The translations under genes were made by a program, and so were the position numbers. From sequence record PQ438048.1: DNA of 64,000 nt. One strand, given 5' to 3'. Shown here piece by piece: positions 54,698 through 58,788 of this stretch; the first letter of the stretch is position 1; each line of letters opens with the position of its first letter. A model generated the notes under the pieces. The model was not told the DNA's origin and made no database searches. It saw nothing but the letters and a program-made list of their open reading frames with translations. The stretch is from Escherichia phage MirsaeidiM_Esher1.

Positions 54698-54726
54698 TTG
54701 ACAGGAATCTGGAAGCTTGATAAACT
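54698..54726 (+). promoter_or_regulatory. sigma70-like promoter (TTGACA, 17-nt spacer, TAAACT)
   Basis: Consensus -35 and acceptable -10 directly after the terminator; heads the 54757-58756 module. Confidence 0.55.
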
Positions 54727-54756
54727 TAACCTATCAACCAATAGAGGAGAAATAGT

Positions 54757-55698
54757 ATGGTGTTAATTGGTAGCCGTGCATTGCAAATTCATGCTATGGA
54801 CATTGGAAAAGACTTGTATCGCCCTTGTGTAGATTTAGATTACCTGTGTACAGAACAAGAGTGGGAAGAATTATCAAAAATGTTCTCTCAAGAGGAGTTT
54901 GTTGAACTTGTAGAACGTAAAGGAAACAAAGGCCATGTCAAAATGATAGCTGGTGCACATTTGGAATACGATATTGCTTCTCAAGGAGATAGCACAGAAG
55001 CTTTGATTAGTTATTGTGAAGATTCTGATGATGTTCGTCGAACTTACGCTGGACATGTTGTTGCTCCTTTAGATGTGCTCTACCTTCTTAAAATGAGTCA
55101 TCGTTTTAAAAAGGATAGTCCTCACTTCTTTAAAACTATGAAAGATATTCATTTCATGCGGTCACTGGGCGCAAAGATCCCAGAAAATCTTAAGAGTATT
55201 TATGAGTTGCGTGAGAAAGAAACATACACTTACTCTCATCCGAACTTAAACGTAAAAAGTAAAGACTTTTTTAAAGGTGATGAGGTTCCGTATGTTTATG
55301 ATCATGATTCTATCCATGAAGCAATCGCGGTAATGGATGCTCCGGCATATAAATCTTATATGAAAGATGGAAGTGAAGTTATGACCAGCAAAGAAAAGTT
55401 TTTTGCTCAACCAAAACATGTGCGCCTGTTAGGTGTTTATGAAGAAGCGTGTGTTTTGGCTTTGGAACGTTCACAAATTCCTTTCGGTGGAGAGATCGGA
55501 GGTCCAACCCCTAAGCAAAGTTTTATAATGGCTTTATCTAAAGTCTGCACATCCATCACTAGTGGTTGGTTTAGGGAATATGCTTGGGAAAACTTTTATG
55601 TTGTTATTAAGCTATATGAAAACATGGGCGAAAACGACTATGTTGAACGTTTTAAAGCTAATCAACATGTAGTAAAGCCTTTTGAAGGAGGTTATTAA
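54757..55698 (+). CDS. hypothetical protein (possible nucleotidyltransferase-fold N-terminus)
   Basis: 313 aa; N-terminal GS...DLD pattern weakly reminiscent of a nucleotidyltransferase fold; otherwise unassigned. Confidence 0.5.
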   Translation: MVLIGSRALQIHAMDIGKDLYRPCVDLDYLCTEQEWEELSKMFSQEEFVELVERKGNKGHVKMIAGAHLEYDIASQGDSTEALISYCEDSDDVRRTYAGHVVAPLDVLYLLKMSHRFKKDSPHFFKTMKDIHFMRSLGAKIPENLKSIYELREKETYTYSHPNLNVKSKDFFKGDEVPYVYDHDSIHEAIAVMDAPAYKSYMKDGSEVMTSKEKFFAQPKHVRLLGVYEEACVLALERSQIPFGGEIGGPTPKQSFIMALSKVCTSITSGWFREYAWENFYVVIKLYENMGENDYVERFKANQHVVKPFEGGY

Positions 55699-55699
55699 T

Positions 55700-56095
55700 A
55701 TGTGTGGATATCTTTCAGAAAGTTATTTCAAAGTGACGCATGAGGATTTAGAAAAAGCACGATTGAAACTGACAGCTATTATTGAATACTCTAATACTGT
55801 TGATCACAGATTAAAGACTACTAAAGTATCTGTTCCTTGTTGGTTAGGTTTACGGCATAAAATAATGTCTCAACATGACCATGTTGTTCGAGAGATGCAT
55901 GGTTGGTGTTGGTTTCACGATGTGGCTCTGCATTTTGGTTATATTACAGAAGAAGAGCATAGATTCTGTGAACTAACATATCGTATTCCAACCCTTCACG
56001 ATTTAGATTTGTGGAAGAAAGCAAACGAGATTTTTCTTACAGAAAGTGATTGGCGTAAAGTTATGGCTTGTCTTGAATGGAGGGGTAATGAGTAA
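55700..56095 (+). CDS. hypothetical protein
   Basis: ATG at 55700 after GGAGG RBS. Confidence 0.5.
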   Translation: MCGYLSESYFKVTHEDLEKARLKLTAIIEYSNTVDHRLKTTKVSVPCWLGLRHKIMSQHDHVVREMHGWCWFHDVALHFGYITEEEHRFCELTYRIPTLHDLDLWKKANEIFLTESDWRKVMACLEWRGNE

Positions 56096-56771
56096 AACAG
56101 TTTTGTCTATGTTTGACGGATCTGGGATCATGGTGTTACGTTATGCCGAAGCAGGTCACAAGTGTTTTTGTGTAAACGCTGATGAAGGGGATCACGGTAA
56201 ATACGAGGTTAGGATGGAGCACCCAAACATAACCTATGTGAATGCCTGGATAGATTCTACATTCAACCCTGAAGATCATGGGATACCTAAACCCGATATT
56301 ATTTTTGGATTTCCACCTTGCACTATGTTAGCAGGTAGTGGTAGCAAACACGAACGCAGCACAGAGGAATTGGATGAAGCTTTAGCTAATATTCGTGTAG
56401 TGGAAGCTTTGGGTAACAAATATAATGTTCCTTGGATGATTGAGAACCCAGTAGGTAAACTTTCAACCTTATGGCGTAAACCCGATTTTTACTTTGATCC
56501 TTATGAGTATGGTGGGTATTTGTTTGAAGAGGAAGGAAGCTTTCATCCTAAAATGCCTACCCGTGATGGGTATACAAAGAAAACTTGTATTTGGCACGGC
56601 AATGGTTTTGTTCAACCAGTGAAGAAACCAGTAGATCATATAGGCTGCTTCTGGGGTTGGAAAAGCTTAGGTGGAGCTAGTGCAAAAACAAAACAACTTA
56701 GATCACTAACCGCACGTGGTTTTGCTCGTGCAGTGTTTTTGTCTAACAATCTTCTAGATAAGGAGAAATAA
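56088..56771 (+). CDS. compact DNA cytosine-C5 methyltransferase-like protein
   Basis: Motif I-like MFDGSG, motif IV-like GFPPCT (Pro-Cys), motif VI-like IENPVG; no room for a normal target-recognition domain. Confidence 0.45.
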   Translation: MSKTVLSMFDGSGIMVLRYAEAGHKCFCVNADEGDHGKYEVRMEHPNITYVNAWIDSTFNPEDHGIPKPDIIFGFPPCTMLAGSGSKHERSTEELDEALANIRVVEALGNKYNVPWMIENPVGKLSTLWRKPDFYFDPYEYGGYLFEEEGSFHPKMPTRDGYTKKTCIWHGNGFVQPVKKPVDHIGCFWGWKSLGGASAKTKQLRSLTARGFARAVFLSNNLLDKEK

Positions 56772-57424
56772 TGTCAAATTCAAAACCAGTGGTTGCTTAT
56801 CAAGTAGATCGTAATGATGGTGAAGGAAGTGTTGTTATTTTCAGTACACACGGTCTTGAGGCTCGTCGGAAAGGTGCATATCGTTTAGAATGTGAGTTTG
56901 AAGACTGCACAAGCCACCGTGTCAAACAATTCGATCAATATGCTGATAAAGGCTTCGTCCCTATCAAAGCGTTACTGGAAGATGGTTGGTGGGTATATTC
57001 TGCTTTTGATTACTCAAAACTGGAGGAGTCAGCTTCGTGCGCCTCCGAGATCGAATATGATGATTACTATGACACTCTCTACCTTCCAGAATGGCTTGTC
57101 TTTTCCCCTGATGAGAGAAGCGTCTGGAAAACTTGGGAAGAAATGGAGAGACATGCGTATAGCATCAATGAAGCCTTAGATCGTAAAGCTTGGTTTATTG
57201 AGGCAGTAAAGGCGGCATACCCTCAATTTTCATTCTGTGATTTCACTGGTGGCCCAGGGTACATTACACATACAGCCTCTTTTGAGTTCCCTGGCTCACG
57301 TTATAAAGGTAATGTTTATTGGGATTGGGATGAAAATAAACAACCTTCGGCTCAAGACTTCCGTTGCTATGTTTGTCAAGGTGATCAAGAAGCCCTTGAC
57401 AAATACCTTCAAAGTCTGGTATAG
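56771..57424 (+). CDS. hypothetical protein
   Basis: ORF track. Confidence 0.5.
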   Translation: MSNSKPVVAYQVDRNDGEGSVVIFSTHGLEARRKGAYRLECEFEDCTSHRVKQFDQYADKGFVPIKALLEDGWWVYSAFDYSKLEESASCASEIEYDDYYDTLYLPEWLVFSPDERSVWKTWEEMERHAYSINEALDRKAWFIEAVKAAYPQFSFCDFTGGPGYITHTASFEFPGSRYKGNVYWDWDENKQPSAQDFRCYVCQGDQEALDKYLQSLV

Positions 57425-57442
57425 TGCCGATATCTGAACAAA

Positions 57443-57470
57443 GCCTCCTGTTTCAGGGGGCTTTTCTTTT
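57443..57470 (+). terminator. terminator-like hairpin (GCCTCCTG...CAGGGGGC TTTTCTTTT)
   Basis: GC stem followed by T-run. Confidence 0.45.
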
Positions 57471-57482
57471 ATAGGAGGGAAT

Positions 57483-57956
57483 ATGTTTCAAGTAAATGTC
57501 AATGTGCATAATAGTTACTCTGATTGTGAAACGTGTGGCTATAATTCATCTAATGTTGTTCGTATTAGTGGCGATTTAGGAGAAGCTTCTTTTGGAGAAG
57601 AAGCAAGTTGCTTTAGTGGTATGGATGCAGAATGGAATGATATTGCACATTGGTTAGTGAGCAAACTAAAAGAAAAAGAGAAACCATTTCCTACCCTGCT
57701 TGATCGTTCTCTTGTGGAAGATGCAGGTAAAGCATATGCAGACTATGCATATGCAGACGGGAAATATTTGGAAGATGATAAGGCTAACCATTTGCTTTAT
57801 GTTTACTATGAAGCTGAATCTGCCTACGATAATTATTATAGCATGTCTAACATCCTCCGTCTATTTGCAGAGTTTGATATTTATTTCGAAGTAGAATTTT
57901 CAGAAGATGATACTTACGAATATGATTCTTATGATCCATTTGAGGAGGACGAATAA
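57483..57956 (+). CDS. hypothetical acidic protein
   Basis: ORF track; AGGAGGG RBS. Confidence 0.5.
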   Translation: MFQVNVNVHNSYSDCETCGYNSSNVVRISGDLGEASFGEEASCFSGMDAEWNDIAHWLVSKLKEKEKPFPTLLDRSLVEDAGKAYADYAYADGKYLEDDKANHLLYVYYEAESAYDNYYSMSNILRLFAEFDIYFEVEFSEDDTYEYDSYDPFEEDE

Positions 57957-58756
57957 TGCCAAGACGTGTATATTTTATTAGTGGTGCGGGACTAAGTGCT
58001 GACAGCGGAATCCAAACATTTCGCACAGAAACAGATTCTGGAAAGGCATTATGGGATGAATATGATTTAACAGAAGTCTGTGACATTTTCAACTTCCGTG
58101 ACGGTTATCAGCAAGAACAGGGTATTCCTGATGCTATGGGTGGCTTAGATGTGGAAGGATATAACCTCTACCGTAAAACTCACGACTTCTACAATAAACG
58201 TCGCGTGGAATTAGAGAAAGTTGACCCGAATCCAGCACATCTTCAGATTGGAGAATGGTTCGAAAAATACGGTGCAGAAAGGATTATTAACATCACTACT
58301 AACGTTGACGATCTATTAGAACGCGCTGGAATCGATAGAGAAGAAATATTGCACGTTCATGGTTTCTTGCCAGAAGTTGTTGTTGATAACAAAATTATCA
58401 AAGATGTGGGTTACGCAGCTATTGATGTAGACGATTACAAATATGTGAAGCCTAATGTGGTGTTTTTTGGTGAGAATGCACCACTCTACACAGACATGTA
58501 TCACAAACTGGATCAACTAACATCACAAGATATGGTTATCGTTGTAGGCTGCTCTAACCAAGTAATCAACTTCAACTGGGAACTCTTCCCTGCCCTGAAT
58601 ATTGGGGTTAAGATGGTTGTAGTTAACCCAGGTTTGAATTTTGTAGAACAAACTCTCTACGAAGAACGTGGAGTGCTTGTCTACCGAGAGAAAGCAGGAA
58701 CAGTCTTCAGTGATGAAGGCTTTATCAAAATGGTTGAAGACCATTTAAACAAATAA
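57956..58756 (+). CDS. SIR2-family (sirtuin-like) NAD-binding protein lacking the zinc ribbon
   Basis: GAGLSADSGIQTFR, TTNVDDL, HG, PNVVFFGE and IVVGCS blocks in sirtuin order; no Cys pairs between the HG and FGE blocks. Confidence 0.7.
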   Translation: MPRRVYFISGAGLSADSGIQTFRTETDSGKALWDEYDLTEVCDIFNFRDGYQQEQGIPDAMGGLDVEGYNLYRKTHDFYNKRRVELEKVDPNPAHLQIGEWFEKYGAERIINITTNVDDLLERAGIDREEILHVHGFLPEVVVDNKIIKDVGYAAIDVDDYKYVKPNVVFFGENAPLYTDMYHKLDQLTSQDMVIVVGCSNQVINFNWELFPALNIGVKMVVVNPGLNFVEQTLYEERGVLVYREKAGTVFSDEGFIKMVEDHLNK

Positions 58757-58765
58757 ACCACTCAA

Positions 58766-58788
58766 GGGGCTTCGGCCCCTTTCTTATT
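58766..58788 (+). terminator. terminator-like hairpin (GGGGC-TTCG-GCCCC TTTCTTATT)
   Basis: Same hairpin sequence as at 42063 and 46684. Confidence 0.55.

Follow-up and report, generated by a model that had tools for sequence, protein, structure and literature searches.

The DNA analysed here is a stretch of 64,000 nucleotides from Escherichia phage MirsaeidiM_Esher1 (sequence record PQ438048.1), referred to in full as the window, and the element under study is a compact block of genes, g1 to g6, that closes with the gene for a zinc-less SIR2-family protein (sirtuin, g6) and also encodes a small protein resembling cytosine-C5 methyltransferases (g3). The phage is a Phapecoctavirus, that is, a phAPEC8-like coliphage. 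Over the region 54600-58900 it shares 99.2% identity with Klebsiella phage ZCKP1, and 92-98% with phAPEC8, nieznany, ukendt and further Phapecoctavirus genomes. Between the outer boundaries of the block lie six tightly packed plus-strand genes (Table 1), both in the table of open reading frames (ORFs) and in the annotations of four relatives, and not the seven counted in the original prediction, which had been made from the letters of the window. As judged from the GC skew, the block closes a rightward array of nucleotide-metabolism and accessory genes that runs from about 24 kb to 59 kb. The same ORFs carry the names 'Sir2 (NAD-dependent deacetylase)' and 'DNA methyltransferase' in the RefSeq records of phAPEC8, nieznany and others, and the original phAPEC8 record notes similarity to rV5 and PVP-SE1.

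The sigma-70-like promoter that had been proposed upstream of g1 is present as a consensus match, and a right-hand terminator-like hairpin was also found, at 58764-58781 (58766-58788 originally). The coordinates first given for the SIR2 ORF were likewise correct, and the 227-aa ORF is present. The proposal that these two elements enclose a single unit did not hold, as the strongest hairpin of the region lies between g4 and g5, and the block is therefore considered to comprise two units (g1-g4 and g5-g6). Among the promoter-like sites of the region, the best match is situated upstream of this internal hairpin, so that its transcript would start with the hairpin. The terminator annotations in the records of relatives were made independently, with ARNold, TransTermHP and WebGeSTer. 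When compared with shuffled sequence, promoter-like sites were not enriched in the region (28 found against 22.8 ± 4.8), and terminator-like sites showed a modest, about twofold enrichment (11 against 4.9 ± 2.6). The TAA stop codon of g5 and the ATG of g6 share one base, a ribosome-binding sequence, GAGGAGGA, being located upstream, and the stop of g3 and the start of g4 overlap likewise.

That g6 is a real SIR2-family enzyme, rather than a different Rossmann enzyme, was confirmed by profile searches, in which it matched the canonical Sir2 family PF02146 (E = 1.4e-20; 74.5 bits, the cut-off being 24; positions 1-178 of the 180 in the profile) and PHROG 2162 (E = 1.1e-96); its sequence is also the same, at 100% identity, as the Sir2 annotated in phage nieznany. 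The motifs for nicotinamide adenine dinucleotide (NAD) binding and catalysis are present as G10-A-G-L-S14, F22-R23, T115-N116-V-D118 and H135-G136. Only CobB-type deacylase models were returned from NCBIfam (E = 5e-27), and g6 fell far below the equivalog or subfamily cut-offs of all of them, with 94.5 bits against 243 for the best match, NF001753, and 79.7 against 320 for NF040867. Its best relatives in the PDB are Sir2Af2, E. coli CobB and SIRT5. Alignment with CobB and Sir2Af2 placed all catalytic blocks in g6 but none of the four ribbon cysteines (0/4), with the segment from HG to KPNVV about 10 residues shorter than in CobB. The missing zinc ribbon of the original prediction was thus upheld: g6 has only two cysteines, C42 and C199, and none between the catalytic H135-G136 and the K165-P166 of KPNVVFFGE, the same being true of 8/8 aligned phage homologues. 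As the Cys4 ribbon is structural and not catalytic, its absence marks a variant of the sirtuin and not exclusion from the family. The place of the ribbon is taken by a region with a conserved D-V/I-G-Y motif. The segment F78-Y79-N-K-R82-R83 aligns with FYNARR of CobB, containing Tyr92 and Arg95 of that enzyme, and FYNxRR was found in the same 8/8 homologues. In SIRT5 and CobB, this Tyr-x-x-Arg dyad is a class III feature that recognises succinyl- and malonyl-lysine.

The phage sirtuins aligned with g6 included those of phAPEC8, Schickermooser, SSE121, rV5, T5-like, Epseptimavirus and KVP40-like phages. GAGxS, TFR, TTNVDD, HxHG, KPNVVFFGE and VVGCS are kept in the T5-like, rV5, SSE121, Epseptimavirus and KVP40-like homologues, none of which has the ribbon cysteines. 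Identity with g6 ranges from 48 to 61% for the proteins of rV5, SSE121, T5-like phages and Epseptimavirus and from 35 to 37% for the KVP40-like ones. To judge from these residues, g6 is a catalytically intact member of an established zinc-less phage sirtuin clade that comes from CobB/SIRT5-like class III sirtuins. The zinc-less state had been noted earlier for the sirtuins of KVP40, phiSt2 and phiGrn1 (PMC5107563, 2016).

The origin of the zinc-less state was followed by an exhaustive HMMER search with the sirtuin against 1.84 billion cluster representatives, which returned 26 relatives with E values of 1e-30 or lower and 360 with values of 1e-10 or lower, the residue analysis being carried out on the 136 nearest relatives of normal length. 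N116, H135 and G136 were present in 136/136 of these, Y79 in 129/136 and R82 in 99/136. At least three ribbon cysteines were kept in 83 of the 136 relatives and absent from 53, including 17/17 of the closest, and the loss of zinc is therefore placed as a derived event within a compact CobB-like lineage. On this residue pattern, the zinc-less state is real and clade-wide but arose inside deacylase-type sirtuins, rather than being inherited from NAD-destroying defence proteins.

A function for such sirtuins was put forward by Iyer and colleagues in 2022 (PMC9503650, section 3.7.3), who predicted that the zinc-less phage sirtuins are KptA/Tpt1-like enzymes in RNA repair, based on three types of gene neighbourhood. 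The sirtuins of these neighbourhoods are orthologous to g6, which is 49-54% identical over its full length to those of rV5, SSE121 and T5-like phages and has the same motif set. In SSE121 the sirtuin gene directly follows that of a P-loop kinase, itself placed after an Rnl1-type ligase, with DNA ligase and MazG downstream; in rV5 it comes after an Rnl1-type ligase and immediately after cREC, with a kinase and a phosphoesterase on the opposite strand just upstream and, again, DNA ligase and MazG downstream. Genes for a phosphoesterase (MPE), Rnl1 and an AAA_33 kinase lie upstream of the sirtuin in a Henunavirus. The sirtuin of jumbo phage SP27 is followed by a Nudt16-like Nudix protein (1.3e-18) and cREC (1.5e-22), and a T5-like phage encodes, two genes downstream of its sirtuin, the RNA-repair phosphatase domain HAD_SAK_2, also called 'Swiss army knife' (1.8e-20).

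The generality of these arrangements was assessed in 80 sirtuin loci of IMG/VR, in which 7 kb around the sirtuin was scanned with small hidden Markov models (HMMs) of our own. Genes for RNA-end processing were found near the sirtuin in 47/80 of these viral loci: HAD_SAK2 in 28/80 (0.6-1.1 kb downstream in 27/28), at least two of cREC, Rnl1, kinase, phosphoesterase, MazG and DNA ligase in 15/80, and cREC together with Nudix in 4/80. A block of the g1/g3/g4 type was present in 11/80, a single marker only (g1-like, Rnl1 or phosphoesterase) in 4/80, and no marker in 18/80. Despite the redundancy of these loci, the three unrelated architectures point the same way, suggesting the processing of RNA ends or of ADP-ribose phosphates.

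The window has a complete RNA-repair cluster of its own, identified by tblastn with SSE121 and rV5 proteins, ORFs and Pfam, and no sirtuin is found inside it (Table 1). The slot after the kinase gene, where the sirtuin is located in related phages, is occupied here by two small unrelated ORFs, 29125-29451 and 29649-29870. In SSE121 (911-3473 of the locus examined), genes for a nicotinamide phosphoribosyltransferase and a ribose-phosphate pyrophosphokinase lie on the strand opposite to the sirtuin, at a distance of 5-8 kb; the window, taken as a whole, gave no homologue of these two.

Table 1. Features of the g1-g6 block and of the RNA-repair and tRNA clusters, with positions in the window
Feature	Position	Strand	Details
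Left terminator-like hairpin	54675-54692	+	7-bp stem, 5 GC pairs, T tail; ends the upstream run of small genes; annotated terminator in phAPEC8, ASO2A and Schickermooser
Candidate sigma-70-like promoter of g1-g4	54698-54726	+	TTGACA-17-TAAACT, extended TG, 10/12; consensus match only; directly after the hairpin at 54675-54692
g1, 313 aa	54757-55698	+	DUF7277 + DUF7275; modelled MenT/AbiEii-like nucleotidyltransferase fold + helical domain
g2, 131 aa	55700-56095	+	PHROG 16551, function unknown
g3, 227 aa	56088-56771	+	Compact protein of modelled cytosine-C5 methyltransferase fold, PHROG 757
g4, 217 aa	56771-57424	+	PHROG 8514; start overlaps g3 stop by 1 nt
Best promoter-like match of the region	57396-57425	+	Inside 3' end of g4; TTGACA-18-TATAGT, 11/12, with TG
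Internal intrinsic-terminator-like hairpin	57440-57464	+	11-bp stem, 6 GC pairs, T tail; strongest of the region; annotated terminator in ASO2A and Schickermooser
g5, 157 aa	57483-57956	+	Very acidic protein, translationally coupled to the sirtuin gene
g6, 266 aa	57956-58756	+	Zinc-less class III-like sirtuin, phage Sir2 clade, PHROG 2162
Right terminator-like hairpin	58764-58781	+	7-bp stem, 5 GC pairs, T-rich tail; annotated terminator in ASO2A and Schickermooser
tRNA gene cluster	20656-22739	-	10 genes by ARAGORN, 11 by Rfam; the eleventh a weak match at 21958-22042 (39 bits); adjoins the repair cluster
RNA-repair cluster	26501-31956	+	
cREC	26501-26857	+	cREC_REC 3.5e-13
Metallophosphoesterase	27225-27776	+	RNA-repair cluster member
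Rnl1-like RNA ligase	27778-28710	+	RNA_lig_T4_1 5.2e-15
AAA_33 kinase	28711-29115	+	AAA_33 4.1e-10
DNA ligase	29858-30985	+	RNA-repair cluster member
MazG-like	31231-31956	+	PRA-PH 2.7e-6

From the intact NAD-cleaving residues and the conserved dyad, we infer that g6 would be an NAD-consuming transferase rather than a plain NADase, passing ADP-ribose to an anionic acceptor, which the dyad would hold in place. The chemistry of sirtuins, in which an oxygen of the acceptor attacks C1'' of NAD and the 2''-OH then attacks the acceptor centre, can be mapped onto the reaction of Tpt1, and by this analogy RNA 2'-phosphate is the most likely acceptor, a choice given about an even chance. The oxygen of the RNA 2'-phosphate would attack C1'' with release of nicotinamide, after which the 2''-OH, activated by the histidine, would attack the phosphorus to yield RNA with a 2'-OH and ADP-ribose 1'',2''-cyclic phosphate, which is what Iyer and Aravind have predicted in print. 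The neighbouring cREC, Nudix and HAD proteins could open an RNA cyclic phosphate beforehand or dispose of the ADP-ribose cyclic phosphate afterwards. In this phage g6 would work in trans, together with the products of the cluster situated about 26 kb upstream (cREC, phosphoesterase, Rnl1 ligase, kinase and MazG), restoring tRNAs cut by host nucleases. Extended to the whole clade, the proposal is that the zinc-less phage sirtuins, g6 among them, are RNA 2'-phosphotransferases, a sirtuin-fold analogue of Tpt1/KptA in which the dyad holds a phosphate instead of a carboxylate and which completes tRNA repair against host anticodon nucleases; this wider form is put forward tentatively, with somewhat less than even confidence.

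Several observations weigh against an RNA substrate. The adjacency to repair genes seen in rV5, SSE121 and other phages is lacking here: the sirtuin gene starts at 57956 and the cluster occupies 26501-31956, a gap of about 26 kb when measured from MazG and of about 29 kb when measured from the kinase. The sirtuin gene is likewise unlinked in the relatives of this phage. The neighbourhood counts rest on redundant loci and on crude HMMs built from 1-4 sequences. T5-like phages, the commonest carriers of the sirtuin, are mostly without an Rnl1-type ligase, and records of Salmonella phages include 289 with a sirtuin and 16 with the ligase. As the combination of a T4-type kinase-phosphatase with Rnl1 leaves no 2'-phosphate, a preceding cyclic-phosphodiesterase step (cREC) must be assumed. 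The strong acidity of g6 (isoelectric point (pI) 4.65, net charge -19) is unusual for an RNA-binding enzyme, a weak point since the RNA ligase of the phage is also acidic; nearly all proteins of this phage being acidic, net charge was discarded as uninformative for telling an RNA from a protein substrate. No experimentally characterised phage sirtuin was found in the searchable literature, from which only genome reports, two in silico analyses and papers on defence systems were returned, and the RNA substrate is therefore drawn from gene neighbourhoods only. Sequence similarity, taken alone, would point to protein deacylation.

Accordingly, the first alternative to be weighed is that g6 is a CobB-like, NAD-dependent lysine deacylase (a deacetylase or desuccinylase, possibly a protein ADP-ribosyltransferase) that reprograms host or phage proteins. 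Its closest characterised relatives by sequence, CobB, Sir2Af2 and SIRT5, the conserved dyad for succinyl- and malonyl-lysine, and the retention of FGE and GxS, motifs lining the acyl-lysine tunnel, all agree with such an activity, as does the separation of the sirtuin gene from the RNA-repair genes in this phage. Deacylation has moreover been proposed in silico for the KVP40-like sirtuin of phiSt2/phiGrn1, for instance in the reactivation of acetyl-CoA synthetase (PMC5107563). However, the zinc ribbon belongs to the small domain that helps to form the peptide cleft and has been lost in the whole clade, the score of g6 is far under the NCBIfam CobB cut-off, and the host has a CobB of its own. 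Furthermore, three independent types of neighbourhood tie the family to enzymes of RNA ends and ADP-ribose phosphates, and not to protein-modification genes. Deacylation is for these reasons considered unlikely, and the transfer of ADP-ribose to an RNA 2'-phosphate is preferred.

The sirtuin ORF was further found to be an allelic hot-spot among Phapecoctavirus genomes. In comparisons of 57954-58715 with three other loci of the collection (L001, L002 and L007), nucleotide identity dropped to 52-87% across approximately this interval, with flanks of 95-100% and a sharp recovery at the edges. At the protein level g6 shares 81.6% identity with the allele of phAPEC8 and 67.8% with that of Schickermooser, whereas in the same genomes g1-g4 and g7 are 90.8-100% identical (all but one value ≥97%) and g5 87.8-100%. 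Synonymous sites between the sirtuin alleles are saturated, and where the synonymous rate could be estimated the ratio of nonsynonymous to synonymous substitution (dN/dS) was below 0.11, which represents purifying selection and rules out positive selection as the cause of the hot-spot. These values therefore indicate that old alleles have been exchanged in a cassette-like manner by recombination, rather than having diverged by rapid adaptation. In Stephanstirmvirinae the sirtuin would have become detached from the repair operon, its old alleles being swapped between phages as a cassette. In Justusliebigvirus BME3 a 246-aa ORF resembling HNH_3 (E = 1.7e-4, below the Pfam threshold; 4271-5011 of the locus) was observed between the g5 homologue and the sirtuin gene, which suggests co-conversion driven by a homing endonuclease as a possible cause of the exchange. 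According to the paper on the BME3 genome, the deacetylase is one of a small number of proteins in which phi92-like phages differ from each other.

The original prediction took the absence of zinc as the architecture of NAD-degrading defence proteins, and suggested that an NADase or NAD-binding protein of this kind could serve in counter-defence, superinfection exclusion or host takeover. In the form weighed here, g6 would need no acceptor and would be used, for host shut-off among other things, in the manner of defence SIR2 effectors. Many SIR2 effectors of defence systems do lack the zinc ribbon, and the NAD-cleaving residues of g6 are intact; in addition, allelic hot-spots among otherwise near-identical phages are common for genes that act at the host interface, and the very acidic, small g5 paired with the sirtuin could in principle be a regulator. 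The loss of zinc does not imply such an architecture, however. At E ≤ 1 no PADLOC family was matched by g6, the models for ThsA, DSR, SIR2-HerA and SPARSA being covered, and SIR2_2 (PF13289), which we take as the Pfam model representing defence effectors, remained below threshold (E = 0.038, 14.5 against 24.5 bits), in contrast to the clear match to PF02146. No fused or adjacent sensor or partner of the SLOG, HerA, Argonaute, TIR or large DSR-extension type was found, g6 being a single-domain protein and g4, g5 and g7 containing none. The ribbon was lost within a CobB-like lineage whose other members keep it, the conservation of the acceptor-binding dyad speaks for a substrate that is not water, and the alleles are old and recombined rather than quickly adapting. 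More distant phages in which g4 and Sir2 are arranged in the same way do not carry g5, and the NAD salvage genes near the sirtuin of some relatives (SSE121) fit the use of NAD and not its destruction. This analysis gave no support to counter-defence by NAD cleavage, and an acceptor-independent NADase is held to be improbable.

The second protein singled out by the original prediction, g3, matched PHROG 757 'DNA methyltransferase' at E = 1.8e-84, with weak PADLOC matches to MTase_II and DruM (E = 1e-4 to 3e-2). Its family comprises 1496 phage records in at least 870 clusters, of 215-245 aa apart from a few N-terminally extended members, and is invariant at FDGSG, at Cys78 in F-P-x-C-T, at E119-N120-P121 and in a C-terminal RSLT segment. 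Modelling of g3 gave the fold of a cytosine-C5 methyltransferase catalytic domain, the structural neighbours being DNMT3B (13.3), 3g7u (12.5) and homologues of Dnmt2 (9.1-10.4), and on the strength of the model g3 is shown to be a compact enzyme of this fold. Of the motifs named originally, g3 carries FDGSG, PPC and ENP, the last in place of the Glu-Asn-Val expected for motif VI. The adjacent Pro-Cys is specific to this sequence and is not a feature of the family, in which motif IV reads P76-x-C78 (PDC, PSC or PPC); motif VIII was not identified. The remark that a standard target-recognition domain (VIII-IX) has little space also proved correct, as none is found in g3 and about 50 residues are available.

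The genomic settings of g3 homologues favour a DNA substrate. The rV5 homologue has a further DNA methyltransferase gene on one side and the genes for helicase/primase and polymerase on the other, in Jersey-like and Vibrio phages it adjoins a helicase or primase, and in Justusliebigvirus BME3 the g3 slot is filled by a canonical 329-aa PF00145 methyltransferase (E = 3e-44). A DNA methyltransferase with a minimal recognition module is considered the most likely identity of g3. Weighing against this assignment, g3 does not reach the PF00145 threshold (11.6 bits against a cut-off of 22, E = 0.18, with only the N-terminal 90 residues matched), its family profile gave no match to PDB sequences, P-x-C stands in place of the Pro-Cys dipeptide in its family, and an exceptional sensitivity to restriction has been reported for relatives of this phage (PMC8594841). 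No experimental report of methyl transfer by the g3 family was found in the literature.

The other proteins of the block had all been left unassigned, which remains the case for g2, g4 and g5 but not for g1. Modelling shows g1 to have a MenT-like nucleotidyltransferase fold of the pol-beta type, with a G-S...D-x-D...D/E pattern and an intact catalytic triad. Membership in DUF1814/AbiEii was not seen at the sequence level, Pfam returning only DUF7277 and DUF7275 and PADLOC nothing, and no antitoxin-like partner was identified. The g1 family has 735 phage records, T4-like phages included, and the homologue of a Mosigvirus is situated about 2 kb from nudE; a tie between g1 and tRNA genes was examined and rejected, as none lies within 4 kb of the homologues in a Mosigvirus and an Otagovirus. 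Searches of Pfam, NCBIfam and PHROGs with g2, g4 and g5 gave only families of unknown function, and the best E value in sequence and profile searches of the PDB was 0.08, below which g4 had no match. For g2 there was no Pfam or PDB match, and its weak Cas7 hit (E = 0.047) was the only one from PADLOC among the sirtuin, g1, g2, g4, g5 and g7 of the seven proteins searched (g1-g7). The g4 family has 158 phage records, mostly from Stephanstirmvirinae. The protein g5 has a pI of 4.05, invariant C15-x-x-C18 and C43 and an acidic tail; it is represented by only 9 clusters in 5.8 billion proteins and, outside Stephanstirmvirinae, by a single partial match in jumbo phage GAP32.

Whether these genes form a system with the sirtuin can be judged from their distribution. 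The order g1-g3-g4-Sir2 is kept in uncultivated phages, mostly on contigs of 55-150 kb, whose proteins are 31-67% identical to those of this phage, and it is therefore an old arrangement in this lineage. None of g1-g5 was found near the sirtuin in rV5, SSE121 and T5-like phages, g1 and g3 stand apart from any sirtuin in other lineages, and g5 is missing from the distant g4-Sir2 loci, which marks it as a later, lineage-specific insertion rather than an obligate partner of the sirtuin. A conserved g3-g4 pair was also considered and rejected, since the g4 homologue of Pseudomonas phage Lucjan has no g3 neighbour. As g1 and g3 occur away from sirtuins, g4 without g3 and g5 by insertion, the block is not self-contained: g1-g6 is a syntenic block in two transcription units and not a dedicated system. 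Partial pairings recur outside Stephanstirmvirinae, with a g3-like gene directly upstream of, and overlapping, the sirtuin gene on an unrelated 90-kb IMG/VR contig (locus L070, 6247-6987) and a DUF7275-only, g1-like gene situated 2.9 kb upstream of the sirtuin in KVP40-like vibriophages (L078/L079, ~4047-4857).

A last alternative, in which g1-g6 would be a second RNA-directed island combining a MenT-like enzyme acting on tRNA 3' ends, a Dnmt2-like mini methyltransferase acting on tRNA and the sirtuin, could draw on the old gene order, on the pairings in L070 and the KVP40-like phages, on the likeness of the g1 fold to the tRNA-modifying MenT toxins and on the lack of a normal DNA-recognition domain in g3, but it is thought very doubtful because the DNA methyltransferases DNMT3B and 3g7u come ahead of the Dnmt2 homologues as structural neighbours of g3, g3 elsewhere resides in DNA replication modules and is replaced in BME3 by a canonical DNA methyltransferase, the g1 homologues of a T4-like and a Pseudomonas phage are not near tRNA genes and have no sirtuin annotated there, and the shared order may be simple inherited synteny in one broad lineage.

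Overall, the explanation held to be best, with slightly better than even confidence, is that of a syntenic block of two units in which g6 would be an NAD-consuming transferase, most likely with RNA 2'-phosphate as the acceptor, and g3 an enzyme of cytosine-C5 methyltransferase fold. The genes of the block are already annotated in dozens of published genomes, and the zinc-less sirtuin and its candidate role in RNA repair have been published; the finding as stated is therefore of limited novelty. The sirtuin family is nonetheless carried by close to a thousand sequenced phages, T5-like and rV5-like ones among them, and the compact methyltransferase-like family of g3 is present in approximately 1500 phage records. 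Removal of RNA 2'-phosphates by the sirtuin, if true, would extend sirtuin chemistry to nucleic acids, provide a new reaction of the sirtuin fold and add a step to phage tRNA repair.

Two features bordering the block were also observed. To its left, three consecutive small acidic ORFs (53688-53885, 54166-54384 and 54394-54666; pI 4.0-4.4) share the C-terminal motif W-[HI]-x-S-S-x(0-2)-C, their ends NWHPSSLSC, VWHSSSC and VWISSSSMC resembling those of a local paralogue family. To its right, a bidirectional terminator-like hairpin at 59076-59099 (10-bp stem, T tails on both strands) is located where the rightward and leftward arrays converge, coinciding with the change of sign of the GC skew near 59 kb.

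When compared with known systems, g3 differs from the C5 DNA methyltransferases M.HhaI, the catalytic domain of DNMT3A/B and the prophage enzyme 3g7u in the 215-245 aa of its family, the approximately 50 residues available for recognition, the P-x-C motif and the PF00145 score below threshold. The g1 protein is distinguished from the MenT/AbiEii (DUF1814) toxins, to which it has no match at the sequence level, by the additional conserved helical domain DUF7275, by having no identified antitoxin-like partner and by belonging to a widespread, phage-borne family. With the SIR2 effectors of defence systems (ThsA, DSR1/2, SIR2-HerA and SIR2-Argonaute) g6 shares the SIR2 fold and the NAD-cleaving Asn and His; it differs in matching neither PADLOC models nor PF13289, in having no sensor or partner domains and in its lineage. 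The resemblance to Tpt1/KptA is proposed as an analogy only, comprising NAD as the donor of ADP-ribose, an anionic acceptor, two-step chemistry through the 2''-OH and the cREC, Nudix and HAD neighbours, whereas the fold of Tpt1 is that of the ADP-ribosyltransferase superfamily and that of g6 is the sirtuin fold. The class III sirtuins CobB, SIRT5 and Sir2Af2 have in common with g6 the Rossmann NAD pocket (GAGxS...TFR), the Asn/Asp of the TQNID type, HG, FGE, GxS and the Tyr-x-x-Arg dyad; unlike them, g6 is without the four zinc cysteines, is about 10 residues shorter than CobB at that point and scores below the NCBIfam CobB cut-offs. Closest of all is the zinc-less phage sirtuin clade of T5-like phages, rV5, PVP-SE1/SSE121 and KVP40/phiSt2 (PHROG 2162). 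The gene of g6 differs from those of this clade in its location about 26 kb downstream of the repair cluster, behind g4 and g5, and the protein in an insert of about 26 residues (approximately residues 49-75) that is shared with other Phapecoctavirus alleles and Epseptimavirus and absent from rV5, SSE121, the T5-like phage VEc33 and phiGrn1. In its motifs, and in its lack of ribbon cysteines, g6 is otherwise the same as the members of this clade, to which it belongs.

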